The notes under the pieces: model-generated
Databases searched by the model: none
What the model was told of the DNA's origin: nothing
Seen by the model: only the letters and a program-made list of their open reading frames with translations
Part shown: positions 2,352 to 31,406 of the stretch, piece by piece
How positions within the stretch are numbered: the stretch's first letter is position 1
How the letters are laid out: each line of letters starts with the position of its first letter
Position numbers and translations under genes: made by a program
Virus record (IMG/VR): IMGVR_UViG_2778261268_000005
Length of the DNA stretch: 32,642 nt
Reading direction: 5' to 3' (one strand)
DNA from: a virus
Lineage: Duplodnaviria; Heunggongvirae; Uroviricota; Caudoviricetes

Positions 2352-2617
2352 TACGAAACCTCAAACTGATTCGTACTTTTGCGAAAAACAAGTTTCCCCG
2401 GTGAGCAAGGCAGCGCCAGATTGATGTCGTAACTGTCAGGTGACGCGATCAAAGGCATGTATACAATCACGTCGCCTGAACTGTCTTTCAGTTCCAGGTA
2501 GTAACGATTTGCATACAGATTAAACGGAACGCGGGCGAATGTTTCATATTCTCCGATTCTGGCCGTGAACTGAAATGGTCCTCGCCCGTCAGGTTTGAAA
2601 GGAATTAACGTTGTCAT
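2351..2617 (-). CDS. hypothetical tail protein (88 aa)
   Basis: Translationally coupled ORF (ATGA overlap) inside the tail operon. Confidence 0.4.
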   Translation of the reverse strand: MTTLIPFKPDGRGPFQFTARIGEYETFARVPFNLYANRYYLELKDSSGDVIVYMPLIASPDSYDINLALPCSPGKLVFRKSTNQFEVS

Positions 2618-3282
2618 AAGCCAAAACCAAACTCCTGCACGACCTGGTTCTTAATACCTGACCACGATAGCGCCCCGTCTGACGGCATCCCTTTATCAAA
2701 TTTATCCAGAACGCTCGCCAGCGTTTTTACCGTTTGTTCGACAGACGACAATGGTTGCTCAAACTCAATCTGCCAGGTGTGCTGAACCTGCTTGTTCTGC
2801 TCAGAGAAACCGGATGTATCGATAAACGACCGCATCAGACAGCGCGTGTAGATGAAAGATGGCGTCATTACGGTGTAACAACCGCCATACTGGTTATGCA
2901 TATCGAGCGCCATTTTCAGCGCCGTGAATGTCATCCCCTTAGTGATGTAGCCACCGTCCTCCGTTGATGCCGGACGGATCATCTGCATGACTACCCGGTT
3001 AGGCTTCTTGACGGTCGCATTCGCTGCCGTTACCTGGTTATAGAAATTCAGGTTGCAAATATCCTGCTGAACCAACGTTGTCCCCGCCATCGGGGTAAAT
3101 GCCGCCATCGAGCGTGTACGAATCTCGCCATGCAGCAGACCGTTCACAATGCTTAGGCCTTCGGTCAAAACAGCAATCGGCATCACCCCGCCGGGAATTT
3201 TCGACGCTATGCCATCAACTAAAAGAATGGGCGATACTTCAAACGCCAGTTTGAAAGCTTGTCCAAAGTAATTAAGTGACAT
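2614..3282 (-). CDS. hypothetical tail protein (222 aa) immediately downstream of tape measure
   Basis: ATG start 3 nt after the tape measure stop; operon context. Confidence 0.4.
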   Translation of the reverse strand: MSLNYFGQAFKLAFEVSPILLVDGIASKIPGGVMPIAVLTEGLSIVNGLLHGEIRTRSMAAFTPMAGTTLVQQDICNLNFYNQVTAANATVKKPNRVVMQMIRPASTEDGGYITKGMTFTALKMALDMHNQYGGCYTVMTPSFIYTRCLMRSFIDTSGFSEQNKQVQHTWQIEFEQPLSSVEQTVKTLASVLDKFDKGMPSDGALSWSGIKNQVVQEFGFGL

Positions 3283-3285
3283 GGT

Positions 3286-5361: not shown

Positions 5362-5669
5362 CACAATACTCCTGCGGGATTTTTGAATTTGAGCAGCTCA
5401 CGAAACTGAGCTGCTGTTTTTACATTTAGGCCGGAATCTGCACAGATGTCTCTGAATCCGGCTCCGGCTGAGTAGTCGAGGATGTCGCTGATGACGTGTT
5501 CGCCGTCGCGCCAGAACTGGCGGCTGATTTCAATGTCGGCAATGAAGCGATCCATTCCGTAAGATTCAATAACGAGCATTGAGTGCTCCATACTCCATTG
5601 ACCACATCCATAGTCCCCTTCGCCTGCTCCGGTGAATTTATCGACGAGACGCATGTAAAAAAAATGAGC
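5361..5669 (-). CDS. -1 frame extension ORF of the tail assembly chaperone (GT-like C-terminal part of a frameshift product)
   Basis: Open in the -1 frame relative to the 205 aa chaperone, overlapping it by about 230 nt; begins just after a T-run slippery site and ends exactly at the tape measure start. Confidence 0.45.
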   Translation of the reverse strand, partial: AHFFYMRLVDKFTGAGEGDYGCGQWSMEHSMLVIESYGMDRFIADIEISRQFWRDGEHVISDILDYSAGAGFRDICADSGLNVKTAAQFRELLKFKNPAGVL

Positions 5670-6043
5670 TCACCCGCCACTTCATCCAAATCAATGATTT
5701 CACGCTCCAGCGCCATATCGAGAGGGATTGTGTCGTAGCCTTTACCCTCCACTGGGTAAACAAGATTTGCCAGGCGAATGACCTCATTAACAAGTGTATT
5801 ACGGACCCCTTTATCACCTTCCCAGATATTAGAATCACGCGAGATCCGCTCCAGCATCAAAAAAGCGATACGCGGACCCGCAACGACGCCAAGACCTTCT
5901 GAAAAAATGGCAGAAAAAGTTTTACTCAGAATGAAGAAATGCTCTTTAAACACCTCTTTGCTAATCGGCGTGGCATGGATCCAGCCATTATCCTTTTCTG
6001 TCCGGACAGGAATAATCAGGTTTAAATTTCGCGCGATTTTCAT
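5426..6043 (-). CDS. tail assembly chaperone (205 aa from ATG 6043; track start 6055 is GTG)
   Basis: Sits between tube and tape measure; ATG overlaps tube stop (ATGA); overlapped by a -1 frame ORF. Confidence 0.5.
   Translation of the reverse strand: MKIARNLNLIIPVRTEKDNGWIHATPISKEVFKEHFFILSKTFSAIFSEGLGVVAGPRIAFLMLERISRDSNIWEGDKGVRNTLVNEVIRLANLVYPVEGKGYDTIPLDMALEREIIDLDEVAGELIFFTCVSSINSPEQAKGTMDVVNGVWSTQCSLLNLTEWIASLPTLKSAASSGATANTSSATSSTTQPEPDSETSVQIPA
5657..5664 (-). other. putative -1 programmed ribosomal frameshift slippery run (TTTTTTTT on the coding strand, read as T TTT TTT in the chaperone frame)
   Basis: Homopolymeric heptamer at the point where the -1 frame opens (after a TGA at 5670-5672). 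Confidence 0.4.
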
Positions 6044-6483
6044 ACCAGATCCCACATTTCAGAGTTGATGTAATACGTACCAGTAATGGTGATGGCCACA
6101 CCCGGCTCGCCCCCGGCGAAGGTCATATCCTGCACGTTGGTGATCGCCGTGTTATAGATATCGAAGTCACCGAACACCGTGCTGTCGCTATACACTTTTG
6201 CGTCGCCGATCGTGGCATTCTTTTCCCATTGCGTCTTGAATTGTTTTCCCAGCGCCTGGCTACGCAGCAGATGAACACGCGCCTGTAAAATCATGTATGG
6301 CTGCGGCGACTGCACGGCTCCCGTCATAGCGGGTAAAAACTCCGTGATATTGCCCTGAAAGGACAATTCGACGCCTTCTTTTGCCAGAAAAGAGGCGGAC
6401 ACATTCAGTTCAGAATGGGAGGTAAATTTAACGCTGGCGCGAACCCGGTTAAGGGTGCCAACGGGGATCATTGGATTAGGCAC
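6040..6483 (-). CDS. tail tube protein (147 aa, GTG start with GAGGGA Shine-Dalgarno 7 nt upstream)
   Basis: Small ORF directly downstream of the sheath-sized gene and upstream of the chaperone pair. Confidence 0.5.
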   Translation of the reverse strand: MPNPMIPVGTLNRVRASVKFTSHSELNVSASFLAKEGVELSFQGNITEFLPAMTGAVQSPQPYMILQARVHLLRSQALGKQFKTQWEKNATIGDAKVYSDSTVFGDFDIYNTAITNVQDMTFAGGEPGVAITITGTYYINSEMWDLV

Positions 6484-11828: not shown

Positions 11829-13143
11829 TGTTCAGGCTCCCTTGAGTGTTAATTTTTGCCAGACGACGCCCCGGAATTTTGAAGGCACTCAGCCAGACGT
11901 TCGGATCGCCCTGATATTCAGTAATGCGACGCCCGGCTTCATCGTTGCGGATACGTTTATGCAGTTGCCCCTGCGTACTCATCATTTCTTTTTCGATGGA
12001 CTGACGGGCGGCACTGAAAATTGCGTCCTCAAGCACAGCCAGAGTTGCAGAATCCGCAATCGCGCGAATATTGACGTCCTTATGTGCCGGAGAGTGTTTC
12101 TGCATAGCGATAAGCGCACGCTTGCGGTAGTCCAGCGCATTTTCTCCAGAAAACGGTGCTGGCGCGTTTTTACCGCAGGCACTGAATGCGGAGTCGGCTT
12201 TTGCCTGTGCTTCGGCCAGGGCAGAGTCATTGCGTTCTTTTTCTGCCTCCTCGTCAGCTTTACGCTGTTCTTCCGCTTCGGAATCAGCCTTTGCTTTCTC
12301 CTCAGCGTCTTTGGCTGCCGCCTCGTCAGCTTTGGCTTTTTCTTCCGCCTCCTTTGCCGCAGCTTCATCAGCTTTACGCTGTTCCTCTGCGGCTTCATCG
12401 GCTTTGGCCTTTTCTTCGGCCTCTTTTTTCGCCTGCTCTTCGGCATCCGCCCGCGCTTTGTCCCGCTGTTCCAGTGAGTCCATGCGCGTGACTACTCCAT
12501 CGATTTTCTGATTAATTCCGCTCATGGCATCGTTCACCACCCCCTGTAACAGGGCCTGGAGTTCTTCTTTTTCCATCTCAATTTCACCTGTATTTGTCAC
12601 TTCAACCCCTGCGGGGATCCGGTCTTTATCCCACACGCCCAGCGAGCCGTGGTCTTTCGTCACCAGGGCGATGTGATCAACAAGGAAAGGAACGCCTTCG
12701 ATTAAAAAATTGGTGTCACCTTCCTGTACTTCCACATTTCCTGATGTGCTGTTGAACACCACCGACGGGCTTGTCGAAACATCCCCCTCAGTGATTTCTT
12801 CAACAATGCTCTGGAGGTAAACGCGGCACACCGCCCATACCTCATCACCCCGGATATACGGCAGCATGACGCTACCGACGATCCGCGATTTAAAGTCCTC
12901 CTCCGTCAGAACTGCGTCGTCAGGATGGTTTGCGATAACCGGAAGGCCATTGCATCGCCTTAAAAACTCCTCGTTAAGATAGAGCTTTGGATCACGCCAG
13001 ACGTGCTCTTTCAGCCCGGCGCGATAGGCAAGCCCGGTTCCGGTTATTCGCAAATTCACCAGCCACATGTTGGAGAATTTCACCGGAGACGGTACGGTTC
13101 CGTCCCTGATGCGTTCTGCCACTTCAAGCTCGGTTAAACTCAC
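11821..13143 (-). CDS. putative prohead scaffold/protease protein with central Ala/Glu/Lys-rich coiled-coil repeat (440 aa, GTG start)
   Basis: GGAGAAGGG Shine-Dalgarno upstream of GTG; repetitive KADEAAxEQ units typical of scaffold proteins. Confidence 0.5.
   Translation of the reverse strand: MSLTELEVAERIRDGTVPSPVKFSNMWLVNLRITGTGLAYRAGLKEHVWRDPKLYLNEEFLRRCNGLPVIANHPDDAVLTEEDFKSRIVGSVMLPYIRGDEVWAVCRVYLQSIVEEITEGDVSTSPSVVFNSTSGNVEVQEGDTNFLIEGVPFLVDHIALVTKDHGSLGVWDKDRIPAGVEVTNTGEIEMEKEELQALLQGVVNDAMSGINQKIDGVVTRMDSLEQRDKARADAEEQAKKEAEEKAKADEAAEEQRKADEAAAKEAEEKAKADEAAAKDAEEKAKADSEAEEQRKADEEAEKERNDSALAEAQAKADSAFSACGKNAPAPFSGENALDYRKRALIAMQKHSPAHKDVNIRAIADSATLAVLEDAIFSAARQSIEKEMMSTQGQLHKRIRNDEAGRRITEYQGDPNVWLSAFKIPGRRLAKINTQGSLNNG
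12230..12450 (-). repeat. imperfect in-frame tandem repeats encoding the (E/A/K)-rich coiled coil of the scaffold protein
   Basis: Repeated gcttt/ctttgg/cttcgg motifs on the plus strand; protein shows repeated EEKAKADEAA units. Confidence 0.6.
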
Positions 13144-13483
13144 GTTTGCCCTTCTCCGTTAAAAATTCGTCGGGTAGTTTCTGAGGGGCGTAGATCGGCA
13201 GTGCATCGCAACTGCAATAAACCTCCTCCCCAGCAGCAGTGATTTCGTCATAAAAACCATATACGGGCTTAATCAGCCCCTGCTCCAGCGCCCACGAATT
13301 GCGGAGGAGATAAATTTTCTCGTCGCGCTCTTTGTGGTCCTGTCGGTATTTGTAGCCCGGACGCCGCCAGTTAGAATGCCAGCGCAGAGCAATCGCTCCA
13401 CTCTGAACAGCCAGCAGATACTTAACGTTGCTTGCCAGCTTATGCCCCTGGTCAATTGCCACCCGGCGACTGATAAAATCCAT
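13124..13483 (-). CDS. small head-morphogenesis-region protein (about 120 aa) or 3' remnant of a larger head gene; start uncertain
   Basis: Track ORF 13124-13858 reads through three intrinsic terminators, so only the part downstream of the 13596-13624 terminator can be coding; candidate starts ATG 13483 or GTG 13540, both with poor Shine-Dalgarno. Confidence 0.3.
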   Translation of the reverse strand: MDFISRRVAIDQGHKLASNVKYLLAVQSGAIALRWHSNWRRPGYKYRQDHKERDEKIYLLRNSWALEQGLIKPVYGFYDEITAAGEEVYCSCDALPIYAPQKLPDEFLTEKGKREFNRA

Positions 13484-13595
13484 ATCCTTCACGGACTTAT
13501 GAAAACCGGACTTCACTTCCCAGCGATCAATTTCGCTCACCCCGTCAGGCGGAATGGACGTAACCGGATAAGGGTTCAGACATGCTTTTTCCTCC

Positions 13596-13624
13596 CACAA
13601 ATAAAAAAGGGCCGCCAGCGGCCC
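13596..13624 (-). terminator. intrinsic terminator (GGGCCG-CTGG-CGGCCC followed by TTTTTTATTT on the minus strand)
   Basis: Hairpin plus T-run read directly. Confidence 0.6.
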
Positions 13625-13708
13625 GTAAAAACACCCTGTCAAAGGCACCCGCAGATGCCTTTTGTGTGGTGTTATCTGATGTGATGTGCGCCGGGCGTGG
13701 CGCGGATA

Positions 13709-13775
13709 TGAAAAAGGCCCGCCGGAGCGAGCCATAAAAAACTGAATAAAAAAAAACCGCCAGGTGCGGCGGTTA
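13709..13775 (-). terminator. tandem pair of intrinsic terminators, copy A of a duplicated ~65 bp module
   Basis: Two hairpins each followed by a T-run on the minus strand; near-identical module at 14389-14453. Confidence 0.55.
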
Positions 13776-14028
13776 AGGATGTATTTCCGGGCTTGGCTTA
13801 GTATATGACCAATCACAGTTTTGTTTTTGTCGATGTTTACAACATCAGAATAATGCATTTAAAGTAGTAAAAATATTTGCTAATAATGCATTATTCCGAT
13901 GGTGTAAAAAATGGCACTGGAACCGCAACGAATATCACTCATTACAGAACAGGGGGCGCAAGGAACCATAAAAAACACCCTACATATATTATGTCAGTGC
14001 CTAACACAATCTCGCCTTAGTTACTGTT

Positions 14029-14101
<73 letters not shown>

Positions 14102-14388
14102 ATACTGTGCTGGCCCCCGGAATAACACGAATTACCAAGAGAGCCCGCACTGGTCTTTCCGGTGGCAAACAGCACCCCTGCTAACATAAAAGATAAACAC
14201 CTTCCAGACGCAAAAATACTAACAACTGTTTTTCAGATATCCAAAATATATTTGGTTTTTATTTTTGAAAATATGTATACATATGTATCATAAATATACA
14301 AGCCATATCATAACCGAATTAAAAATCTTTAGTTATCTCTTTTGCCGTCTGATCACCACCCACCGGCAGCTGAGAATTCCGGCACACA

Positions 14389-14453
14389 ATGAAAAAGGCC
14401 CGCCAGGGCGAGCCATAAAAACTGAATAAAAAAACCGCCCGGGGCGGCGGCTA
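14389..14453 (-). terminator. tandem pair of intrinsic terminators, copy B of the duplicated module
   Basis: Same two-hairpin architecture and flanking sequence as copy A, with point differences. Confidence 0.55.
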
Positions 14454-14815
14454 AAACGATAAAAGGACACAATATTATAATGATTATTGGGTTTGGGGCA
14501 TCGGGTGCCTCCCGAAGTATTCCACTTTACGTGGATACTGTGGTTTCCCGCTAAACCGACTCTATAAACCACCCTCGCACTGAGGAACGCCCCAATTCAT
14601 GTTTTCCGACACAGAGATGGCGCATCACTGGTTACTCCACGCTAAATCCTGCTTCCTTTCGTGGGCAATGCGCCATTTCTGTGTCATAAAAAATACAGCA
14701 CTGAGTCTGTAACCGATCTCCATTACAGAATGAGGGACGATAAAGGTATTAAAGAGATCTGTTCCTCACGAAAACCGCCAGTGCTGTAAAAACTTGTCCA
14801 AAAAACAATGAAGTT

Positions 14816-14884
14816 GCGGAGAACAGGAATCGAACCGGCATTACCAACCTAAGGCTGATGTAATAACCACTATACGATACCTGC
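14816..14884 (-). pseudogene. tRNA-like element, probably a degenerate paralogue of the tRNA-Gly gene
   Basis: 5' half nearly identical to the Gly tRNA (GTATCGTATAGTGGTTATTAC) and a TTCGATTCC T-loop, but anticodon, T and acceptor stems do not pair properly. Confidence 0.4.
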
Positions 14885-15406
14885 ATATAGAGCAGGCCTC
14901 CGTAACCACAATAATGACACTGATACTGATAACAGCCCTTCATTATGATTAAACGGATGCCAGCAATGACCCGCAAGACAGCGGGTAACACCCCTGTGAA
15001 CAGAAACTTGCTGCCTTTCGGGTCGAGAGTAATATTACCGATAATTTATATGACATCAAAAACTAATTAGTTTTCATATTTAAACATATGTATAAATATG
15101 TATCAGACGCATACAATTTATGTTATTTCATCCAGACTTCTGATTTCTCACAGGAAATTGCGAAAAAAAAACAACATAAAAATGAACAAATTGGGAGTAC
15201 GCTAACTCCGTTGTCGCAATAAATCACAGTAAGCTCTTCAGAAATAACAGTTCACAAGACTTACATCAACAGTAGTTTTTGTAATGATTAATGTTAACTG
15301 TAGCGTTGAAAAGAAAAGTTTTGACGAAATATGGTGAACTAACAGAGCCTAACGAATAGCCCTATTACGCCGAGCTAATAGCGCTGCCAGCTAAACTTGC
15401 ATGGAA

Positions 15407-15561: not shown

Positions 15562-15701
15562 GATTGAAAAATATTGACTGAATCAGTTTAGCGCTGTAAT
15601 CCACCCAACACAACCGTTTAAATCTTGTATGTCAGCTACAATCAAGTAAAAATATCTGAACAACAAGCAGAAAAGTCTATATCCCGGTTACTCATAATGT
15701 T

Positions 15702-16415
15702 TTAGCGCACTTTGACTATATTAATTTCAAATTCATCTGTATGTGCGCTATTAAGTATAACGAAATTCGTACTACCGTGCCTGTACGATTTTGATAAAAC
15801 CAAGCGATCACCATAGCGAGCAAGAACGTAATACCAAACGCTCTCATAGTGAAGTGTCTGATACTCCTTCTTAAACTGAGGTTTGTACCATCCAGCAATA
15901 AGCGAAAACAACCAGAAATAGAGCATGAATCCGGCCATAACACACTCAATCTTGTGATGCCGAATAAAAGACACTTCAGAAATACATTTAACGTAAATAA
16001 ACTTCCTGCCCGTTCTGACGAACATGGTAATTATTAATGCCACAATAGCGCATAAAACCAATGCATCTGGTACAAAGTGCTGATGAATTACCGAAAACTC
16101 CAGAGCCGGAGGAACAAAAAGCAACAATATCGCAAGAAAAAGCCTGACAGCACTCAAATCCTTCATATTATTTTTTTGTTTGATCCCCAGAAAGAAGACA
16201 ATACCGATCCCCCATCCAGCCAAGAATATAACGATAACTGTGACAGCATAAAACAGGCTTCTGGCCACATCATCAACACCGGCCCCGACAACCCACCATG
16301 GAAAGCCATAGTAAAAGGAAGTACCCCAGCCATAGAAATAAGCACTTCCCCACCCAAGACACCCCATGTAAGCAACAAAAAGTGAAGAATTCCTGAGCAG
16401 AGTACTGTCACTCAT
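15702..16415 (-). CDS. hypothetical polytopic membrane protein (237 aa from the second ATG; about 5 hydrophobic segments); late-region cargo gene
   Basis: AT-rich ORF between the Q terminator and the tRNA cluster; AGAGG Shine-Dalgarno 6 nt before ATG 16415; W/F/G/Y-rich hydrophobic helices; no family recognised. Confidence 0.6.
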   Translation of the reverse strand: MSDSTLLRNSSLFVAYMGCLGWGSAYFYGWGTSFYYGFPWWVVGAGVDDVARSLFYAVTVIVIFLAGWGIGIVFFLGIKQKNNMKDLSAVRLFLAILLLFVPPALEFSVIHQHFVPDALVLCAIVALIITMFVRTGRKFIYVKCISEVSFIRHHKIECVMAGFMLYFWLFSLIAGWYKPQFKKEYQTLHYESVWYYVLARYGDRLVLSKSYRHGSTNFVILNSAHTDEFEINIVKVR

Positions 16416-16453
16416 AATCATCCTCTAACAACTTAACAACATTAACTCGCTTT

Positions 16454-16482
16454 ACATAACAAAGAAAATTCCATGTAGTCAA
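16454..16482 (-). promoter_or_regulatory. candidate sigma70 promoter for the membrane-protein gene (-35 TTGACT, 17 nt spacer, -10 TTATGT)
   Basis: Hexamers read on the minus strand about 35 nt upstream of the start codon. Confidence 0.3.
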
Positions 16483-16749
16483 GAGGGTTCAGGAAAGGAG
16501 AAACTAAAATTGCATAGCCATCATAAAGTTTAACGTACCAACCTGCTTTTTCAGGTATAAAAAAACCAACCTCAAGGAAAGGCTGGCATAAGAAAAGTAA
16601 ATAATGATTCCACTAAAACTTCGTCGCAGGAGGAATCCTGTGCCGCTTAACATACATAAAATTTAGACAACTAACAATCACAATATAAAATATTTAAGAT
16701 TTCGTTATCAAAATACCAGTCAGTAGAGCGCCAGCTCTCCCGTAGATGG

Positions 16750-16783
16750 TTAAACATAACAACAAAACCCGCTCAATGGCGGG
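16750..16783 (-). terminator. intrinsic terminator about 85 nt downstream of Q (tR'-like position)
   Basis: CCCGCC-ATTGA-GCGGG hairpin followed by TTTTGTTGTTATGTTT on the minus strand. Confidence 0.55.
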
Positions 16784-16868
16784 TTCTGGTGAAGTTCATG
16801 CGATTAATTCGCCACGCGATACAGCTTTGCGAAGCGTATCGGAATTGAAGCAGTTTATGCGTAAGAAA

Positions 16869-17411
16869 TCAAGCCATTTTTTGAGCAAATGATTCTCGCA
16901 TGGGAATGTATAGCGCACACTCAGCAACAGCCAACCAATTAGCAATTCGCTTTTCGCATGTGCTAAAACAACACTCTGGATACTGTTCGTTTAGTAACCC
17001 GGCCATCCTTCTCTTACTCATTCCTCGCCCCTCATACCGTTGTCGGAGGATGCTAATCAATCCCGGATGTTCTGCCAGCACCTCACTTATAACCCGATCA
17101 ATACATAACGCCTCTGCATCAGTACAATGCGCCAGCCAGCTCTTTTGCTTACCATTGATCATCTCTCGCAAAAACGCTTCCAGCTCAGGTTTCTCTATTC
17201 CCGCTTTTTTCATTCTGCGCAGGGCTTCATTGATGGCTGTTTTCGTCAATTTTTTGGATGCCAACAACTGATTGAACATATTTCCTGACCTGCCACCACC
17301 AATATATGACCAGCGCCCCCACATACGTAGTTTTCCCTGAATCCAGACACTTTCCAGCGTAGTGAGACGAAGGTGTTCTCCGCTTTTTCCTGTATTCGTT
17401 GGGTAAATCAT
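16869..17411 (-). CDS. late-gene antitermination protein Q (180 aa)
   Basis: Recalled similarity to lambdoid Q proteins of E. coli prophages; position upstream of the late region; ATGA coupling to the DUF1364 gene. Confidence 0.75.
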   Translation of the reverse strand: MIYPTNTGKSGEHLRLTTLESVWIQGKLRMWGRWSYIGGGRSGNMFNQLLASKKLTKTAINEALRRMKKAGIEKPELEAFLREMINGKQKSWLAHCTDAEALCIDRVISEVLAEHPGLISILRQRYEGRGMSKRRMAGLLNEQYPECCFSTCEKRIANWLAVAECALYIPMRESFAQKMA

Positions 17412-18906: not shown

Positions 18907-19116
18907 AGCCTGCTTCTCCTTGCCTTTCGGCACGTAAGAGGCTAACCTACATTTGTGAGACATAGATTGGGCCTCAGATTAATGTTAAGCGTCTTGCAGG
19001 ACGCGTAATGTTAACTGGGGCTTTTCTCTATCTGCCTTTGGTGTTCATGCCCGAGGCAGATAGCCTCAAGCACCCGCAGCAATTCTACTTAACTCTCCTT
19101 TTCCCGCAAACCGTTT

Positions 19117-19200
19117 TTATCCCCAGCGGCAAATCGAATACACCACCAGCGCCACCGCCATCGCAATTCCTACCGTGGTGAATGCCTCAGGCCGGGTCAT
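19117..19200 (-). CDS. candidate 27 aa hydrophobic peptide (MTRPEAFTTVGIAMAVALVVYSICRWG), coupled to the DUF551 gene stop
   Basis: ATG overlaps the upstream TGA (ATGA); single predicted transmembrane segment; no other support. Confidence 0.25.
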   Translation of the reverse strand: MTRPEAFTTVGIAMAVALVVYSICRWG

Positions 19201-19901
19201 TGATTCACCTCCTGCGGCGGTTCTGGTAGCGGCATCCAGTGAGTTGAGCTCTCTACTTCGACGCCGTCTTTGTCTACAAAAGCCATCTTATTCCCGCCAC
19301 GAGTGGGGCAAAAAACCTTATCCCAGGAACCGGGGAATACATTCCCGAGATCATCGAGAAGAATCACATCGCAATATTCAGCAGGAACTGCATCACTACA
19401 GCTTATCCAGCCAGCCGGAGTTCCCGGAGAGCTGGTTGACGTTTCCGAGATTTCCCGAAAATTGTTGGTTGACGAATTCTTACTTTCCCGAAAGTTTTCG
19501 GCCTGAAGCATGGCGACACGGCAGGCGTTCCAGCCATCAGCATATGTTTCAGTTACACCGTCGAGATGGCAGGTAAGCAAATCCATTTCATCAGGCACTA
19601 CCATCGCTGGCGGCGCTGCGTAAAGCGGTGTTATTTCTGCCCGAAAATCACCTACTTTATGCAGTCGCACCCACCGTTCGATTTCTGCTTTGTCAGAATT
19701 CATAAGGGTGAACGTATTACATTCATGGTTAATTTGCGTGAAGGTTGCCTTCCACGCCACCGGCTCTGCTTCCAGTGATGCCAGTGCAATTTTGAATAAC
19801 TCGCCCTCTACCTGCGCCATCCCTGAATTTGAGTGGCATTTCGCAATCGCTATTTTTAATTTGGCTTCTTCGATTAATTGCTCTTTGGTTAATTCAGTCA
19901 T
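19197..19901 (-). CDS. DUF551-domain phage protein (234 aa)
   Basis: C-terminal region with the ...THWMPLPEPP motif characteristic of DUF551 proteins, as recalled. Confidence 0.55.
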   Translation of the reverse strand: MTELTKEQLIEEAKLKIAIAKCHSNSGMAQVEGELFKIALASLEAEPVAWKATFTQINHECNTFTLMNSDKAEIERWVRLHKVGDFRAEITPLYAAPPAMVVPDEMDLLTCHLDGVTETYADGWNACRVAMLQAENFRESKNSSTNNFREISETSTSSPGTPAGWISCSDAVPAEYCDVILLDDLGNVFPGSWDKVFCPTRGGNKMAFVDKDGVEVESSTHWMPLPEPPQEVNQ

Positions 19902-20031
19902 TTTTCATTACCGCCCTTTCAGGCGGCCTCCTGATGTTCTGAGGGTGCAGAAATCCCTCCGGTTAAGGATTTAATAAAATTCACTTCTGATTTAAATTTT
20001 CAGTATTTTGTTGTCAGGTGGTTTATCGCCT

Positions 20032-20343
20032 TTATGCTTCAGTCTTATTTCTCAGCCATACACAAACAGGACCATCTTCAGTGTCATGAATGGAACCAAT
20101 GAACCAGCCTTCACCTTCCGGGCGCTCCGGTTTCCAAGAGGCAATATCGGGACCATCTGCGTCCAGATTAAAATCATCTTCATCCATAGTTCTGATGGTC
20201 CATTGAAGATTATTTTCCTCCATCCATGCGTTAAACTCTTCCGTTGAAATATGTTCTCTACCATCACAGAATTTTTCATATTCAGGATGCGTCCAGCAGC
20301 CATATTCATCACGTACTACTGGTATTTCTTTAATTTCATTCAT
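20032..20343 (-). CDS. hypothetical acidic protein (103 aa), last gene of a coupled four-gene cassette
   Basis: ATG overlaps the upstream stop; Trp/Asp/Glu-rich; no family recognised. Confidence 0.5.
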   Translation of the reverse strand: MNEIKEIPVVRDEYGCWTHPEYEKFCDGREHISTEEFNAWMEENNLQWTIRTMDEDDFNLDADGPDIASWKPERPEGEGWFIGSIHDTEDGPVCVWLRNKTEA

Positions 20344-20590
20344 TTCTGTTCTCCCACGTTTTCAGACTTTCACCACAGAACGGACAAAATGAAACCCGCA
20401 CTGGTAATTTAGAAAATTCACCGGAACGCAACATCACCAAATCATGGTCGCGAGTTAAATTCTCATTCCAGATTTTGTATATCAGCAGACCTTTTCGCGT
20501 CGTGTATTCAGCATCATGCTCAAGGGCTTTTGCCAGTACCGCACATGGTTCTATCTGATTGCTATTAACCTGACATTTTGATTCGCTCAC
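20336..20590 (-). CDS. hypothetical protein (84 aa, GTG start) with a C-terminal Cys cluster (CPFCG), possible zinc ribbon
   Basis: GTGA overlap with the upstream stop; no internal ATG before residue 53. Confidence 0.45.
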   Translation of the reverse strand: MSESKCQVNSNQIEPCAVLAKALEHDAEYTTRKGLLIYKIWNENLTRDHDLVMLRSGEFSKLPVRVSFCPFCGESLKTWENRNE

Positions 20591-21009
20591 AGCATCACCT
20601 CCTGAAATTCCCCCTGATAAAACGCCAGCACTCGCTGCATAACCTCACTCTTCCGGCACTCGCGACAGATTATGTTCTGACGCCTGTCGTAGCGGCGTAT
20701 TTCTCCGTCAGGTAATGACCTGATAAGGTCCGGATCAACCACAGCCGTTTTCTTCACCTTTGCCCTCGATAGTTTTTTGCGGGCGTTTTGCCAGTCCTTA
20801 CGAGCCTGTTCAGAGGGAAATAGCCCGTAGCCGGAGTTATATACATCGCCACTGGCAACCAGCTCTCTGGCGAGAACGCTCATTAAATATCTTGTCGCAC
20901 CTGTCTTAGCTTCAAGTTGTCGTAACGTCTCGCGCCCATTCTGGCGCACGAGTTCAACAACCTGCCCCTTAATTTTTTCCCGCTCTTCTTGTGTAAATAC
21001 TTTTGCCAT
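20587..21009 (-). CDS. hypothetical protein (140 aa from ATG 21009; track start 21024 is TTG) with an N-terminal helix-turn-helix-like segment and a CRECRK Cys pair
   Basis: GGAGG Shine-Dalgarno 5 nt before ATG 21009. Confidence 0.5.
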   Translation of the reverse strand: MAKVFTQEEREKIKGQVVELVRQNGRETLRQLEAKTGATRYLMSVLARELVASGDVYNSGYGLFPSEQARKDWQNARKKLSRAKVKKTAVVDPDLIRSLPDGEIRRYDRRQNIICRECRKSEVMQRVLAFYQGEFQEVML

Positions 21010-21024
21010 AAGCGCCTCCGGCAA

Positions 21025-21786
21025 TCACTTTTCCGATACAACACAGCGGGAAGAATCAGTAATCTGGCGAACAATATCCCGGTGCTTGTTCAACTCCCGC
21101 AGCGCGGCGCAGACACGCTCCCACTTCTGGACATGGCTTTTCGCCCGACGCAGTTTGCGGTTTGCCAGATGCAGCGATGGCAAAATCAAATCATCCGCCC
21201 GCGTTTCGGTAAACGATGGCAACGACTGCACAATGTCCGCTACAGTATCTGTTTTAATTTCTTCCTGTGTTGCAGCCTCCTGTACTGGTAACGCAACACC
21301 TGCGGGCTGAGGAAAAGCCTTACCATCAGTTTCCGCTACCGATGCTGCTTTCGGCTCTGCTGGTAAATTATCGCCCGGTATGCAGTAACGAAATTTACCG
21401 CCCTGATTTACGCGAATCAGACGACCTTTGCTGATTGCCATTGCCAGCGTTGAAGCCACTTTGCGTGATGTGGTACCAAACAATGTAGCCAGTTCATCCG
21501 CCGTTTGTGGTCCGCGTTGTTCAATCGTCGCGGTTAAATCGCACTCTGAGATTTTCGCTACTGTCGCCGTGCTGGTTTCTTCCGGCTGTTCTTCTGGCGC
21601 TGGCTGTTCCTGCTGAACGTTGTTATCAGCCACACGCCAGGTGTATGCGCTTTTATCAACGAAGCCAGCCTTTTTCAGTTCCCACAGCTCGTTCAGTACT
21701 TCTTCACGACTGATATCAAGTCGCGCAGCCAGCTCTACCGACGTGGCTTTTCCCATCGCTTTCAGTGCGTCAAAAACAGTCTCCAT
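21025..21786 (-). CDS. hypothetical protein (253 aa) with two winged-helix-like segments, a low-complexity acidic linker and a basic C-terminus
   Basis: ORF 20 nt downstream of the DnaC-like gene; two HTH-like motifs ([15 protein letters not shown] and [16 protein letters not shown]). Confidence 0.5.
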
Positions 21787-21806
21787 AAATTTCCTCCCGG
21801 TAAAAA

Positions 21807-22553
21807 TTACTTTTCAATACCTGGCTGACCAACATTCGGGCGCCAGCTCTCCCAGTTAAAATTCACCCAGCGCCCGCCGTTCATGGTCATGCGATCCATA
21901 ATCCGCTCGCCGAGCAATGTTTTCATGGCCTCATAGTTCAGGTTTGTCAGCATTCCCACGCTACGCATCGACGCTGTCCGTCGATCAATAATCTGGTGCA
22001 GTACCACCTGCTCGTTTTTCGTCTCGCGCTGAATGCCAATTTCATCAAGAACCAGCAGATCCACTTCGCACAGTTCCCGCAAAAATTTTTCGCCTGACTG
22101 CCCGTCGTCATAGCTGGCGTGCAGGGCGCTCATAACATCAGCCACGGTAACCACAATCACTGTCTGACCGTCTTTCAGCAGGCGATTCCCGATAGCTGCC
22201 GCTAAGTGATTCTTCCCGGTACCAGGTTTTCCGCTGAACGCAAAATTTGTACACCCGGTCATCAGTTCATCGGCGATGGATTTCGCCTGGCTTAACGCGT
22301 ATCGCTGGCCGTCGTTCTGCACCTGGTAATTCGCAAACGAGCATTTACGGTGCAACGGCTGGATGCCTGAGCGATTCAGAATTTTTTCCACCCGCAACTG
22401 GCGATTCAGGCGGTTGATCTCCTCGCTACGTTTCTGGCCTTCAGCAAGTTGCCACTCGCGCCACTCCGCAACCGTTCTGAATGGGGCGGTTACATGTGGT
22501 GGGGTCAGTCTGCGGATACGCTCCAGAACGCCTCCTGTCGCAATATTTTTCAT
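21807..22553 (-). CDS. DnaC-like replicative helicase loader (IstB-type AAA+ ATPase), YdaV-like
   Basis: Walker A GKPGTGKN and Walker B LLVLDEIG motifs; position after the YdaU-like gene. Confidence 0.8.
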
Positions 22554-22559
22554 GGTCTG

Positions 22560-23348
22560 TTACCCCCTGAAGCCTGGCGGGATCGCACTGTCCGGCAACG
22601 AGACGGTGTTAACCTGTCGGAGCAACGTCTCAGGCCGAACACCTTTCGGCGCGAACAGGCCCTGGTATTCATTGGCGATGCTGTGTCGAATCACCTGCTC
22701 AGGTGTAAACCCCTGCTGACGGAATTTTTCCAGTTCCCGTATCGCCCCGTTAGCGCCCTGCTCCGTTCGAATCGGTTTTCGCAATGCCTGTCTGAACCGG
22801 ACCCACTCATGCCAGAGTGTTTCCGGCAACCAATCGGGCAGCTCAATAGCCTCCGGCTCGAATTTTTTAGACGCTCGTTTTTGGCGAGGGGGATTTAGGG
22901 GGAGATCAGTATTTAGATCTTCCTCTTCCTCTTCCTCTGGTAGCGCTTTTTGATCCGTTTGTGTAACGCCGGCAGCGTTACCTTTTCGTTTCAGTTCACG
23001 TATTTTTGTAACTCGCTCGTTTGTAACCGCCCGTTTTTTAGAGCTTTTTCCGTTATGGCGTTCAAAGTTAGGTAGAGAAAGCCCAACGTCATTTTCGACC
23101 AGCCATCCAACCTGAATTAACGCATCAGCAAAACCAGCCATAAAAGTGATGCGATCTATTGCACTTTTTGTAACGCCGCGAGCGTTACAATCTGCATTAC
23201 CGTCTATCATTTGTTGATCCGCCCATGCCCAGAAGCGAATAACCTTCCCTAATGCGGCATCTGGATCAATATTCAGAATCTCAGCAAGCCTGAATATTTC
23301 CGGCTTATCCGGCGTAATAACCTCGAGCTTTATCCAGTTTGAAGCCAT
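22560..23348 (-). CDS. putative replication initiation protein, YdaU-like (262 aa)
   Basis: Position between the immunity region and the DnaC-like gene; acidic EEEEEED linker; family call by synteny. Confidence 0.5.
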   Translation of the reverse strand: MASNWIKLEVITPDKPEIFRLAEILNIDPDAALGKVIRFWAWADQQMIDGNADCNARGVTKSAIDRITFMAGFADALIQVGWLVENDVGLSLPNFERHNGKSSKKRAVTNERVTKIRELKRKGNAAGVTQTDQKALPEEEEEEDLNTDLPLNPPRQKRASKKFEPEAIELPDWLPETLWHEWVRFRQALRKPIRTEQGANGAIRELEKFRQQGFTPEQVIRHSIANEYQGLFAPKGVRPETLLRQVNTVSLPDSAIPPGFRG

Positions 23349-23425
23349 TTGTTTTCACCTTGTAACGCTCGCAGCGTTACATTTAACTGATACCGAACAA
23401 AACAATCCGGCACGATTAATTTCAA

Positions 23426-23848
23426 TCAATGCACTACGACAGAATCACCGGGCGACCCACCACCGCTGAAATGTGCTTTCCGGTAAACGGCCTGGACTGC
23501 ATCATCATGCGCATCAATTGCCGTACTCAACGCTTCCTGCGCCGCCAGTAATGCACGGCGTTCCAGGGTATCGAAGATGCAGAGTCGGTGACGCAGCTCG
23601 CGCGGAAGAATTGCCAGAACCGCAGGGATCAGTGTCTGAATTTTTTCCCTTTGCGCTTTCGTTTCACCTTTTAACCAACGGTGATAGATGTTCTGCTGAT
23701 TATTCCAGTCCTTGCCTGGTACCAGGGGCAATTCGCCGCCCCCCTGGCGCAGATATTCTTCAGTAATTGCATTGGCTACCCATGCCTGCCCTTTTTCAGC
23801 GGCCAGGGCTAACAGCACTGATTCGATGTGCTCATGCCTGATTTTCAT
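23426..23848 (-). CDS. YdaT-like protein (140 aa), cII-like regulator / putative toxin family
   Basis: Same size and position as Rac YdaT; C-terminal HFSGGGSPGDSVVVH resembles the YdaT tail as recalled. Confidence 0.55.
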   Translation of the reverse strand: MKIRHEHIESVLLALAAEKGQAWVANAITEEYLRQGGGELPLVPGKDWNNQQNIYHRWLKGETKAQREKIQTLIPAVLAILPRELRHRLCIFDTLERRALLAAQEALSTAIDAHDDAVQAVYRKAHFSGGGSPGDSVVVH

Positions 23849-24107
23849 GAATCAACTCCTGTGCATTTTGTGTGTTAGCCTTACATCCAACAGGTAAACC
23901 ATCGGTCGGATTCGGGTAGATATCAGGCCGGAGTTCATGAGGTGTAACCTCGAAATTCGTAGCCTCTGCGATACGCAATACCTTTTCAGGGCTTAACTGA
24001 CTACGTCCAGTAGCAACGAGGCTAATCATTGATTGCGAACAACCAGCCAGCGCGGCCAAACAAGACTGTCGTACACGATTTTTTTTCAAATATTCATCTA
24101 ATGTCAT
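23832..24107 (-). CDS. Cro-like HTH protein, YdaS-like (91 aa from ATG 24107; track start 24134 is TTG)
   Basis: AAGGTGA Shine-Dalgarno 5 nt before ATG 24107; divergent from the repressor gene; HTH motif QSCLAALAGCSQSMISLVATG. Confidence 0.6.
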   Translation of the reverse strand: MTLDEYLKKNRVRQSCLAALAGCSQSMISLVATGRSQLSPEKVLRIAEATNFEVTPHELRPDIYPNPTDGLPVGCKANTQNAQELIHENQA

Positions 24108-24211
24108 AAGGGTCACCTTAGTAATGTTCGCCAAAATATTAACTATACTAATTTAAATGATCAATACTTATATCAGTTTGAGATTATGAGCTGTGTTCAT
24201 AAGATGGTGGT

Positions 24212-24676
24212 ATGAGAAGAAAACGCGAAGAAATCGCATCGCCAGAAGCTACGCAGCGTCTACGCGGAATCTGGGATGCAAAAAAAAGAGAGCTCAAATT
24301 GACTCAGGAGCTTGCTGCCGAGCTAATGGGCTTTGAGACGCAATCTACGGTTAGCCACTATCTCAACGGAAAGGCTCCACTTAACACTGATGCGGCATTA
24401 AAATTCGCAGTATTGCTAAGAGTTAAGCCTGAAGACTTGAGGCCTGATTTAGCTGATCTGATGAATTACGTCCGTTCCTCTGGAACTTATGACGAAAGTT
24501 TCGAAGGCGAAGGGTGGCGGATGGTTAACAAGCAACAAGCTGATTTACTGGATCTTTTTGATATCCTCCCCGAATCAGAAAAAGCAAAACTAATCGAAAG
24601 GCTTAAAGGCCAGAATGAACTCTACAAAGAAGCGTTTGAAAATATGCTGGCAGCTCAGAAACGCATAAAGAAATAG
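24212..24676 (+). CDS. prophage repressor, RacR/DicA-like HTH protein (154 aa)
   Basis: HTH LTQELAAELMGFETQSTVSHYLNG; C-terminal LDLFDILPESEKAKL resembles DicA-type repressors; divergent to the cro-like gene. Confidence 0.7.
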   Translation: MRRKREEIASPEATQRLRGIWDAKKRELKLTQELAAELMGFETQSTVSHYLNGKAPLNTDAALKFAVLLRVKPEDLRPDLADLMNYVRSSGTYDESFEGEGWRMVNKQQADLLDLFDILPESEKAKLIERLKGQNELYKEAFENMLAAQKRIKK

Positions 24677-24698
24677 CCCCCACTACCTCGTAACTAAA

Positions 24699-24722
24699 CC
24701 GCCATCCCTGGCGGTTTTTTTG
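24699..24722 (+). terminator. intrinsic terminator after the repressor gene
   Basis: CCGCC-ATCCCT-GGCGG followed by TTTTTTTTG. Confidence 0.7.
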
Positions 24723-24739
24723 TCCCCTGCGCCCCCATC

Positions 24740-24905
24740 GCCTTACTTTTTTATCAAAAAAAACACTAAAATTTTCATTAGGATAGTACATTTTTATCAA
24801 CAAAATGCATATTTATGTTGATCATCAATATGAATATAACTAATATTATTGCAGAAGCAGCACGGCGCTGTAGGTTTTAGTTCCGCCACCCGGCGTTAAG
24901 GGGAG
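24740..24905 (+). promoter_or_regulatory. AT-rich promoter/operator region of the early-left operon, with inverted repeat ATCAACA-N13-TGTTGAT around an ATGCAT core
   Basis: Palindrome and repeated TTATCAA/TTGATCA motifs read directly; located between terminator and first early-left gene. Confidence 0.4.
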
Positions 24906-24912
24906 AGATAAG

Positions 24913-25047
24913 ATGGTGCATTACGAAGTAGTTCAGTATTTGATGGATTGTTGCGGTATCACTTACAACCAGGCTGTGCAGGCTTTACGCAGCAACGACT
25001 GGGATCTCTGGCAGGCAGAAGCCTCTATCCGCAACAACAAAATGTGA
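24913..25047 (+). CDS. small early protein, YdaF/YdaG-like (44 aa)
   Basis: GGGGAGAG Shine-Dalgarno; below the ORF-track cutoff; sequence resembles a small Rac early protein as recalled. Confidence 0.5.
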   Translation: MVHYEVVQYLMDCCGITYNQAVQALRSNDWDLWQAEASIRNNKM

Positions 25048-25057
25048 GGTGCGAAAA

Positions 25058-25210
25058 ATGCAAAAAATCGACCTCGGCAATAACGAATCCCTGGGGTGCG
25101 GCGTGTTCCCCAACCAGGATGGAACGTTCACTGCCATGACTTATACCAAAAGCAAGACATTCAAAACTGAAACGGGCGCACGTCGCTGGCTTGCCAGAAA
25201 TACTTGCTAA
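25058..25210 (+). CDS. small early protein, YdaF/YdaG-like (50 aa)
   Basis: ATG 10 nt after the previous stop; below the ORF-track cutoff. Confidence 0.5.
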   Translation: MQKIDLGNNESLGCGVFPNQDGTFTAMTYTKSKTFKTETGARRWLARNTC

Positions 25211-25630
25211 TCCATTATTTGGATTAATTCAATATTCTCGCTGTAGGGGTATAGCAGAAACCACCAAAGCCCGGAGGTGGTGAAATAAAACCGGGCACAA
25301 CACGAAGTCGCATTTCCGATATCCATAAAGAGTCGGTCTTGTCTGTTAAATTTAAATGGTGGGAGTGCGCCTCCGGTTGTGGATAACAACACTGCTGTGT
25401 GTAGTCTTGGCGGCATCAGTTTTTTCTTGAAGTTCGACTGATGTCCGCCCTTTTTAAAGTGAATTTTGTGATGCGGTGAATGCGGCTAAGCGCACGCGGC
25501 ACAGTTAAAAGTCATGTTAGTCCTTATTGGTTTGGGTGGGAAAGCCGACTGTAATTGTTAACTGGTTGCAGTCACCTGGAGGCACTAGGCACCGCATCAA
25601 CAAAGTTCATTTGTAAAAATGGAGATAATT

Positions 25631-25852
25631 ATGATTGCACATCACTTCGGAACTGATGAAATACCACGTCAGTGTGTGACTCCTGGTGACTATATTCTTC
25701 ATGAAGGCCGGACATATATTGCCTCGGCAAACAATATTAAAAAGCGAAAACTTTATATTCGTAACCTGACTACAAAAACATGCATTACTGACTGCATGAT
25801 TAAAGTCTTCCTCGGTCGTGATGGTTTACCTGTAAAGGCGGAGTCATGGTGA
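25631..25852 (+). CDS. kilR: KilR, FtsZ-targeting cell-division inhibitor (73 aa from ATG 25631)
   Basis: Translation [21 protein letters not shown]...[12 protein letters not shown] matches Rac KilR as recalled; GGAGA Shine-Dalgarno 5 nt upstream. Confidence 0.8.
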
Positions 25853-26022
25853 TGACTAAGAAAATAAAATGTGCTTACCACCTTTGCAATAAAGAAATTG
25901 AAGAAAGCAAAAGTATTAAAAGACCACTTCATTTCATGCGTGGAGTTATCCCAACGACGGAAATGAAAAAATATTGTAGTGAAAGTTGTGCCGAAAAAGA
26001 CCAGATGGCACACGAACTTTAA
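25852..26022 (+). CDS. YdaE-like small Cys-rich protein (56 aa)
   Basis: ATG overlaps the kilR stop (TGATG); CxxC...CxxxC pattern. Confidence 0.55.
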   Translation: MTKKIKCAYHLCNKEIEESKSIKRPLHFMRGVIPTTEMKKYCSESCAEKDQMAHEL

Positions 26023-26096
26023 TTAACTGACTATTCGAAACTGAATTTATGCCAGCAATGGCAGGGATTCGCTCAACCTTAATTAAGGAGAAAAAC

Positions 26097-26372
26097 ATGA
26101 TTACCAATTATGAAGCCACTGTTGTAACTACCGATGACATTGTTCACGAGGTTAATCTGGAAGGAAAGCGTATTGGCTACGTGATTAAAACAGAAAATAA
26201 AGAAACCCCATTCACTGTGGTTGATATCGACGGTCCATCAGGCAACGTAAAAACACTTGATGAAGGTGTCACAAAAATGTGCCTGGTTCACATCGGAAAG
26301 AATCTGCCCGCAGAAAAAAAAGCCGGATTTCTGGCAACTCTGATTGCAATGAAATTAGGCGGTGAAATCTGA
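26097..26372 (+). CDS. racC: RacC (91 aa from ATG 26097)
   Basis: AAGGAG Shine-Dalgarno 6 nt before ATG; sequence and position immediately upstream of recE match Rac racC as recalled. Confidence 0.65.
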   Translation: MITNYEATVVTTDDIVHEVNLEGKRIGYVIKTENKETPFTVVDIDGPSGNVKTLDEGVTKMCLVHIGKNLPAEKKAGFLATLIAMKLGGEI

Positions 26373-26473
26373 AAGAAATAGCCTGCGCCATACGCAGGCT
26401 ATGAACAGTGTGTATCCGGCAAGATCATTCACTGAACAAAACGAATTTTAATCTGAGTTGAGGTTAAAAAACA

Positions 26474-29400: not shown

Positions 29401-29548
29401 ACTTGGTCGACAGGAATATCGCCGGACGCTACGCCAGATAAACGAAGCCCTAGAGACAAACAACTGGCCAGCACCGATTACCGAAAGTTATACCGACGAA
29501 TTAAACGACTTTGATCTTCGTCGTCTTGAAGCACTGCATCTGGCTTAA
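26474..29548 (+). CDS. recE: exodeoxyribonuclease VIII, RecE (1024 aa)
   Basis: N-terminus [26 protein letters not shown]... matches RecE as recalled; C-terminal PD-(D/E)xK-like nuclease region (RPDIEIR...ADVKSV). Confidence 0.85.
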
Positions 29549-29562
29549 TGGAGAACCTGACC

Positions 29563-31405: not shown

Positions 31406-31406
31406 T

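Follow-up and report, generated by a model that had tools for sequence, protein, structure and literature searches.

A TfpB/STM1630-family gene in the slot behind Q of a defective prophage

The subject of this analysis is a gene for a protein of 237 amino acids, which lies on the minus strand (15702..16415, stop codon included) of a 32,642-nucleotide stretch of viral DNA, IMG/VR record IMGVR_UViG_2778261268_000005 (referred to below as the window). Judged by sequence similarity, its product is a member of the family that is catalogued as TfpB in Pfam (PF27470), as 'STM1630 family' at NCBI and as PHROG 1521. The window holds one more copy of this widespread family and not a new kind of system. 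A preliminary description of the locus, made from the sequence alone, had found no recognisable family for the product, a statement that can no longer be upheld. Its view of the gene as accessory cargo downstream of Q agrees with our results. The gene was indeed present at the locus named there; its strand, which had been left unstated, is minus.

The gene is accessory. It follows Q genes of five families, has variable neighbours, is absent from most phage records and has been retained in defective prophages as well as in chromosomal islets and on virulence plasmids. The copy in the window is intact despite the loss of lysis and packaging genes. We tentatively propose that the product is an accessory, non-enzymatic envelope protein which would be made from a promoter of its own as well as by late read-through and would help the lysogen in its animal host.

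The gene, its family and the predicted protein

The longest reading frame at the locus in the list of open reading frames (ORFs) extends over 15702..16421 on the minus strand and corresponds to 239 amino acids. Its first in-frame ATG (16421) is an unlikely start, as it directly abuts the ribosome-binding site AGAGG (16422..16426, minus strand, read directly from the sequence) with no gap. The second ATG (16415), which is found 6 nt past GAGG, yields 237 amino acids. This is also the start in RefSeq entry WP_001285363.1, an identical protein that is annotated as 'hypothetical protein' at the identical locus of Escherichia coli RM11911, and the alignment of the homologues with the 237-residue protein begins at the same codon. 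The coding sequence is thus documented by the ORF list, by the RefSeq entry, by the PHROG match and the homologues, by substitution analysis and by a structural model.

The ratio of non-synonymous to synonymous substitution rates (dN/dS) was determined against four homologues with 68–82% protein identity. It is 0.14–0.20 overall and 0.03–0.10 for residues 1–78, and the ORF is confirmed as a real protein-coding gene under purifying selection. With 41.0% GC, compared with 47.8% for the window, the gene is AT-rich as had been described. So are its surroundings: the region from 13.6 to 16.8 kb (about 3 kb) has a GC content of 34–45% throughout.

The assignment to PF27470 is based on precomputed matches of the homologues together with pairwise and profile similarity. 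A large protein collection contained 103 homologues, all 103 of them with a precomputed match to PF27470, the Pfam entry that bears the name TfpB. PHROG 1521, a family of unknown function, matches the protein with E=1.7e-85 over 221 of its 222 profile positions; the PHROG matches comprise four families of unknown function in total and no others. A protein from the same slot in E. coli E7-1N7 (79% identity) is annotated by NCBI as 'STM1630 family protein'. A Salmonella arizonae protein encoded next to sseJ shows 48% identity over the full length, and an ORF located between inverted pilin segments in Moraxella bovis shows 28% identity (E=3e-21) over nearly the full length. The published primer for deletion of STM1630 codes for NSSMLLAYLGGLGWG, which is the family motif. 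The family is small, with 70 proteins among 1.84 billion representative proteins in an exhaustive profile search.

Several other searches with the protein were negative. A Pfam-A scan, for which a copy older than the PF27470 model was used, gave only noise (best match Microp_apicomplexa_18, E=0.013). NCBIfam release 20 returned zero families, and also none for the protein which NCBI itself names 'STM1630 family'. A sequence-profile search of the PDB gave no match at E<=10, and the literature query 'PF27470' retrieved no papers. Papers on TciA/TciB and DUF3927 were mainly unrelated ones on T. cruzi genotypes, with a few on P1-like phage-plasmids, and yielded nothing on the gene. In open papers, the name 'TfpB' is used for an unrelated PilB-like ATPase of Acinetobacter.

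The profile searches and the structure prediction which the preliminary description had proposed as checks thus returned a family and, from the prediction, five helices followed by a β-domain; the polytopic membrane protein expected there is in line with both the hydrophobic segments and the modelled helices. Kyte–Doolittle analysis revealed four strong hydrophobic segments and a weak one. An AlphaFold2 (AF2) model computed from close homologues only was unusable, with a mean predicted local distance difference test score (pLDDT) of 60.5; with distant members added (alignment A3), a pLDDT of 80.5 and a predicted template modelling score (pTM) of 0.74 were obtained. The helices of this model comprise residues 5–36, 47–82, 88–111, 116–138 and 155–181, and the C-terminal β-domain has five strands across residues 184–235. 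Lys and Arg residues are clustered in the loops 79–91 and 134–160, so that by the positive-inside rule the amino terminus would be cytoplasmic and the β-domain periplasmic.

The architecture is shared by the family members in alignments A1–A4: an N-terminal AY.YGWG..YYG.PWW..ARSL, membrane helices, and a C-terminal β-domain with YY(V/I)L. Within the Enterobacteriaceae, the segment YGWG..YYGFPWW..DDVARSL is near-invariant. This most conserved part of the protein extends from the aromatic and glycine-rich end of helix 1 through the loop into the first part of helix 2. Across the broad alignment A3, G175 alone is invariant. There are no polar residues conserved family-wide in this alignment, which argues for a non-enzymatic protein.

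A Foldseek search of the PDB with the AF2 model found no significant structural match. The top matches are chains of the MscS family, which have membrane helices followed by a β-domain in common with the model and would point to an MscS-like or other channel protein. Their scores (E >= 0.26, probability <= 0.23, TM-scores 0.15–0.19) are not significant, and the β-domain, periplasmic according to the positive-inside rule, would be on the other side of the membrane from that of MscS, which is cytoplasmic. We have effectively rejected a channel function, to which we assign next to no probability. The C-terminal β-domain also showed a weak likeness to SH3-like barrels in the structure search.

The slot behind Q and the promoter-like motif

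The gene upstream, on the same strand, encodes a Q-like antiterminator of 180 residues (16869..17411, minus strand), which matches PHROG 753 'anti-termination protein Q-like' with E=1.3e-77 and is a 'DUF1133 family protein' in RefSeq. About 80 nt past its stop codon, the terminator scan located a hairpin of 10 pairs, six of them G-C, followed by a T-rich tail (16763..16788, minus strand). This hairpin, the 'Q terminator' of the preliminary description, is a candidate for tR' of the late promoter unit. It is kept in L042, a locus with the same DUF1133 type of Q. Downstream of the 237-codon gene, tRNA genes follow at 15561–15407 (minus strand), and the placement between the Q terminator and the tRNAs was therefore correct. 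The terminator scan did not detect any terminator-like site between the gene and the tRNAs (15562–15701, minus strand), so that transcription past tR' should run through the gene into the tRNAs.

To what extent this arrangement is general was seen in a scan of IMG/VR, which gave 187 confirmed loci, the best 80 of which were analysed for slot counts. A Q gene is located upstream on the same strand in 79 of the 80 loci, and in 74 of those 79 the distance from the end of Q to the start of the homologue is 210–460 nt. The ORF is intact in 79/80. The Q genes belong to five unrelated families: DUF1133 (the window and L042), PF06530-type (APEC O1, O22:H8 and Yersinia), lambda-like (O157 and O111), Q82-like (phage 434) and PF03589 (Enterobacter). 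The downstream neighbours are variable. tRNAs were found in 38 of the 80 loci; elsewhere there are genes for a DNA methyltransferase, a NanS-p esterase or toxins. A fixed partner gene was rejected, because DUF3927 comes next in only 12/80 loci.

The slot is also the one in which stx is carried, as had been stated. The E. coli loci L075 and L088 have the order Q, family gene, ileZ/argN/argO, stx2AB (toxin genes at 4642–5918 in L075), and in the Enterobacter loci L047 and L117 stx1e-like AB genes (2540–3766 and 2040–3266, respectively) precede the family gene. In the Cronobacter locus L048, LT-II genes (1655–2773) are found before and ArtAB-like genes (4885–6091) after it, and LT-like or ArtAB-like genes follow it in L074 (4329–5471) and L115 (4394–5420). 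AB5 toxin genes (Stx2, Stx1e, LT-II-like and ArtAB/pertussis-like) adjoin homologues in six of the 80 IMG/VR loci and in L047 and L048. Most copies of the gene have no toxin gene nearby.

Such a position may indicate a late phage function, with the first gene of the late operon tuning lysis timing, envelope breakdown or the release of AB5 toxins. The gene is the first or nearly the first one after Q, pR' and tR', on the same strand and ahead of holin and endolysin, it is not followed by a terminator, AB5 toxin genes adjoin it repeatedly, and the predicted periplasmic β-domain is weakly SH3-like. However, nearly all sequenced lambdoid and Stx phages do not have the gene, and toxin genes are absent near most of its copies. 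It is kept without a lysis cassette in the window, in Salmonella and Citrobacter, on the virulence plasmid pINV and in Pasteurellaceae. In the phage variant 434B, the whole region from Q to lysis, including the homologue, is replaced by DLP12 sequence, and this variant is still plaque-forming (PMC9119081). Holins and endolysins are separately annotated downstream in related prophages, and the Pfam and PHROG scans of the 237-residue protein did not reveal any similarity to holins, antiholins, spanins or endolysins. With its five helices and β-domain, the protein also departs from the small size and 1–4 membrane helices of lysis proteins. We regard a late function as rather improbable.

The closest phage counterpart is CPT_434_68 of phage 434, which is 57% identical, is located directly after Q and tR' and has the same promoter-like motif. 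The arrangement is the same for WP_001302581.1 from an O157:H7 prophage. These copies differ from that in the window in having a Q82-like or lambda-like Q and in being followed by DUF3927 (TciB-like) and a NanS-p esterase gene, not by tRNAs. In the phage 434 genome paper, the homologue is described only as 'putative membrane protein' (PMC9119081).

In its genetic properties the gene resembles the morons or conversion genes of lambdoid phages, such as stx, which is carried in this very slot, or bor and lom, which are located elsewhere. Like these, it is accessory cargo of the late region with a deviating composition (41% GC versus 47.8%) and a presence/absence polymorphism, as reflected by the five Q families and by the many phage records that do not contain it; both expression in the lysogen and late read-through are possible, as for morons. 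There is no relation in sequence or fold, and, unlike lambdoid morons, the gene has no terminator of its own in the scan between its stop codon at 15702 and the tRNA at 15561 (minus strand).

The preliminary description had proposed a promoter for the gene. The respective sequence, TTGACT-17-TTATGT, is present on the minus strand at 16454..16482, with TTGACT as -35 element at 16482–16477 and, after a spacer of 17 nt, TTATGT at 16459–16454. It is a sigma-70-like promoter candidate as judged by sequence. An alternative reading has an 18-nt spacer, with TG at 16461–16460 and TATGTA at 16458–16453 forming an extended -10 element. TTGACT-17-TTATGT occurs once in the window, compared with 0.09 occurrences expected by chance. 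The exact form CTTGAC-N14-TTTGTTATG was found in 10 of 10 fetched Escherichia-type loci and in 72 of the 80 IMG/VR prophage loci. In these, the 14 nt between CTTGAC and TTTGTTATG vary in sequence but never in length. Two invariant elements separated by a variable spacer of fixed length are the footprint expected of a promoter. The upstream regions of Escherichia type can be aligned from the T-tract of the preceding terminator through the start codon.

Degenerate copies were observed as well. One is frameshifted and comes from an O111:NM prophage that is otherwise typical (L046 3407–4161). Another, in E. coli UTI89 (L004 5001–5632), is frameshifted and truncated; a solitary tRNA-Arg accompanies it, and the iro (salmochelin) island is adjacent. 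In the Sakai prophage Sp4 (L135 12239–14391), the slot after Q does not contain a gene of the family. There, the CAAX/CPBP ('Abi') membrane protein gene ECs_1085 and a gene for an AraC-type regulator are located ahead of ileZ/argN/argO, which indicates that the slot collects varied membrane-protein cargo.

Occurrence of the family and possible functions

The gene is common in E. coli genomes and rare in phage records. It is carried by 1197 of 5426 complete E. coli genomes (about 22%), with two copies in each O157:H7 genome listed. Only three of 50,697 phage records contain it, namely phage 434 and phage 2B8, the latter being one phage with two accessions. The plasmid pINV of Shigella and enteroinvasive E. 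coli carries the gene, which was found in 106 Shigella plasmid records. The copy of Citrobacter rodentium adjoins lpxR, that of Klebsiella quasipneumoniae is on an island which also bears STb, and that of Salmonella (STM1630) is located between steB and sseJ. In Pasteurellaceae and Conchiformibius, solitary chromosomal copies are found among housekeeping genes. As far as their organisms are named, the genome, plasmid and annotated loci come exclusively from animal-associated bacteria; the most distant members are from metagenome contigs.

Among the very distant members (13–17% identity), some are encoded directly after a gene for an SRAP (YedK-like) protein. This was seen in two independent contexts (L133 4262–5711; L010–L012 5276–6741), and the pairing of SRAP and TfpB-like genes may be conserved. 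The pair in L133 has umuDC and P2-like tail-fibre genes as neighbours, on the border of a P2-like prophage. One distant member is located beside AAA_23/AAA_21 genes in a defence-island-like setting.

Published experimental data exist for STM1630 (SL1560) of Salmonella Typhimurium, from which the NCBI family takes its name. It is homologous to the gene in the window, codes for 237–238 residues with the same N-terminal motif, and is likewise AT-rich and horizontally acquired. Published tables list it as a 717-bp gene for a 'putative membrane protein' adjoining sseJ, and it is flanked by the virulence cargo steB and sseJ. It differs from the gene in the window in being chromosomal, with no Q upstream and with a different promoter about 170 nt upstream, and in being regulated with Salmonella pathogenicity island 2 (SPI-2) and silenced by H-NS. 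STM1630 is bound by H-NS, and in strain 4/74 its own promoter is active in SPI-2-inducing medium and in macrophages; in ST313 strains the gene is silent via two single-nucleotide polymorphisms in the -10 element (PMC6785131 S1 Text). Co-regulation of STM1630 with the virulence regulon of SPI-2 has been described (PMC2639726). The 4/74 deletion mutant replicates more strongly inside macrophages, and attenuation of mutants in calves as well as in chickens is cited (PMC6785131 S1 Text). The deletion was hypermotile in one screen (PMC4219756); motility is not among the altered STM1630 phenotypes listed in a follow-up study (PMC4534456).

The Pfam name of the family derives from the TfpB of M. bovis and M. 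lacunata. The Moraxella loci, like other genome loci, were found with the narrower alignment A4. The Moraxella members in the genome scan are from M. bovis, M. lacunata, M. equi and M. oblonga, in all cases inside or beside the pilin locus. The M. bovis homologue (261 amino acids) is located between two inverted pilin 3' segments and is co-oriented with one of them; that of M. lacunata is flanked by piv plus a pilin segment and, at its opposite end, by a complete pilin gene. This position in the classical pilin-inversion region identifies the Moraxella ORF as tfpB. Early descriptions of this ORF are those by Fulks et al. in 1990 and by Rozsa and Marrs in 1991 (J Bacteriol). No open papers on the tfpQ/I region were found. 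TfpB shares the layout of helices plus β-domain with the 237-residue protein in the family alignment; its gene differs in being located between the tfpQ and tfpI pilin segments next to piv and in not being phage-borne. In M. lacunata NCTC10359, tfpB (L018 6001–6733) is broken after 195 codons, with similarity extending to residue 235, which suggests that it is dispensable in this strain.

A further possibility prompted by these loci is an accessory role for type IV pili or pseudopilins, in which the protein would act on pilin-like proteins of the inner membrane. In addition to the pilin loci of the four Moraxella species, a TfpY-like layout would fit such a role. The TfpY/TfpX/TfpZ/FimB-like proteins resemble the 237-residue protein in being membrane proteins of about 240 amino acids with an odd number of helices and a periplasmic C-terminal domain, and their genes follow a pilin gene, as is also the case for the Moraxella family member (PMC11841053). 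By its published description, however, TfpY is set apart, having three helices and a mixed α/β domain (PMC11841053) versus five helices and an all-β domain in our model. No prepilin motif was found anywhere in the window, and the M. lacunata copy is interrupted. Outside Moraxella, the scanned loci contain no pilin gene within 6 kb; pilin adjacency as a general trait of the family was therefore rejected. Moreover, lambdoid hosts rarely express type IV pili. Altogether, a pilin-related role is very doubtful.

The preliminary description had named superinfection exclusion, abortive infection and lysogenic conversion as candidate functions. An exclusion or other anti-phage protein would be made by the lysogen in the inner membrane and would block DNA entry or abort infection, like P22 SieA, HK97 gp15 and T4 Imm. 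These are similar to the 237-residue protein in kind only, being small prophage-encoded inner-membrane proteins. A prophage-borne gene with a predicted inner-membrane product and a conserved promoter-like element, retained in defective prophages, would agree with exclusion, as would the distant member beside AAA_23/AAA_21 and the CAAX/Abi-type membrane protein in the Sp4 slot. The database searches did not support this function: PADLOC yielded 0 families at E<=1, NCBIfam had no match, none of the four PHROG families is annotated as exclusion, immunity or holin, and no homology to exclusion proteins was found in PHROGs or PADLOC. Members of the family are also found on chromosomes away from phage DNA, including the solitary homologues among housekeeping genes in Pasteurellaceae and Conchiformibius, and neither the Moraxella pilin locus nor the co-regulation with SPI-2 suggests phage defence. 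We consider exclusion unlikely. Of the three options, lysogenic conversion is better supported, if only indirectly, by the published data on the Salmonella orthologue STM1630.

The envelope protein that we tentatively favour may act as follows. The gene would be a moron-like module inserted right after tR' of a lambdoid late promoter unit. In the lysogen, transcription from the conserved TTGAC-N17/18-TTATG is expected to be low or conditional; after induction, Q-antiterminated read-through from pR' would result in high transcription, which would continue into the tRNAs. The protein is predicted to reside in the inner membrane with five helices, a cytoplasmic amino terminus and an SH3-like periplasmic β-domain of about 55 residues. 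The segment at the junction of helices 1 and 2, YGWG..YYGFPWW..DDVARSL, should face the periplasm as well, and this conserved end of the helix pair, together with the β-domain, might bind or organise another envelope component. The benefit would be to the lysogen in an animal host (lysogenic conversion) and not to phage multiplication.

A number of points weigh against this proposal. A host role of the E. coli and phage copies is extrapolated from the STM1630 data, and the phenotypes seen in Salmonella are mild and in part contradictory. The -10 element is weak: a generic promoter scan misses TTGACT-17-TTATGT, the -10 hexamer of which does not have A at position 2. The motif is absent from the copies in Enterobacter, Cronobacter, Yersinia, Klebsiella, Citrobacter and Salmonella and on pINV, and its conservation elsewhere may merely reflect a young shared upstream module. 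The topology is derived from the model and the positive-inside rule, and helix 1 is hydrophobic only weakly. Finally, the gene invariably has the orientation of the late operon and precedes the lysis genes, which would also fit a late phage function.

A broader possibility, which we regard as speculative and rather improbable, is that the family represents an unrecognised envelope factor with one defined activity that is spread by phages. It would either be a new inner-membrane protein of exclusion or defence or act on pilin-like or periplasmic cargo and thereby affect the release of AB5 toxins, Shiga toxin included, with which it shares a transcript. If true, the family would connect four settings, namely the late-operon slot of E. 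coli, the SPI-2 regulon of Salmonella, pINV of Shigella and the pilin switch of Moraxella. Irrespective of this, the family is present in roughly a fifth of complete E. coli genomes, on pINV, between two effector genes in Salmonella and, in some prophages, on a late transcript where Q precedes and stx2 follows it. Were its function defined, with envelope remodelling in the host, phage exclusion and toxin release as candidates, a 'hypothetical protein' that recurs in the annotation of Stx phages and prophages could be given a role, and the Moraxella tfpB ORF and the STM1630 phenotypes would be explained as well. The gene is a reasonable target for experiments, being abundant, located on the late (stx) transcript and repeatedly associated with virulence loci.

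Upstream insert, tRNAs and state of the prophage

In the window, an insert of about 200 bp (16555..16760, minus strand) separates the first terminator from the gene module. It contains a strong promoter-like site, TTGATA-18-TATATT (16711–16682; 10 of 12 positions in the scan), and, about 110 nt past it, a second terminator-like hairpin (16587–16565, minus strand). The insert is rare. It was found in five of 5426 E. coli genomes and is missing from L042 despite the same type of Q. The insert has a fold z-score of -1.97 and no match in Rfam; it could code for a small RNA or a micro-ORF of 13 codons. The insert probably belongs neither to the unit of the 237-codon gene itself nor to the conserved module.

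Two tRNA genes, found by ARAGORN and Rfam and annotated in RefSeq, follow the gene on the minus strand. The first (15561–15486) has a CAU anticodon and is called 'Met (CAT)' by ARAGORN and tRNA-Ile by RefSeq (ileZ-like, of the lysidine type). The second (15483–15407) is tRNA-Arg(UCU). A cluster of this ileZ/argN/argO type is the one preceding stx in Stx phages, as seen before stx2AB in L075 and L088. Between tRNA-Arg and a tRNA-Gly there is an AT-rich stretch of 1.3 kb with no credible ORFs (14100–15400). It holds a fourth tRNA-like element (14815–14884, minus strand), which scores 31.8 bits in Rfam (gathering score 29), was not called by ARAGORN and may be a degenerate tRNA.

The prophage is defective. 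In comparison with the RM11911 prophage, to which it is otherwise 99.97% identical, the window does not have a segment of 7.7 kb (L001 6538–14259) containing both holins, the M15 endolysin, both terminase subunits and a gene which RefSeq annotates as 'anti-CBASS protein Acb1 family'. The 237-codon gene is nonetheless intact. The deletion junction is at 13559–13565, with an overlap of 7 nt, and a fusion ORF (13124–13858, minus strand) spans it. The prophage is Rac-like according to the annotation of the identical L001 (window 19000–32642): it is integrated next to ttcA and contains intR/xisR, recE/recT, ralR, kilR, ydaT/ydaV and hokD. The prophage thus combines a Rac-type early region with a late region of the Q–tRNA type.

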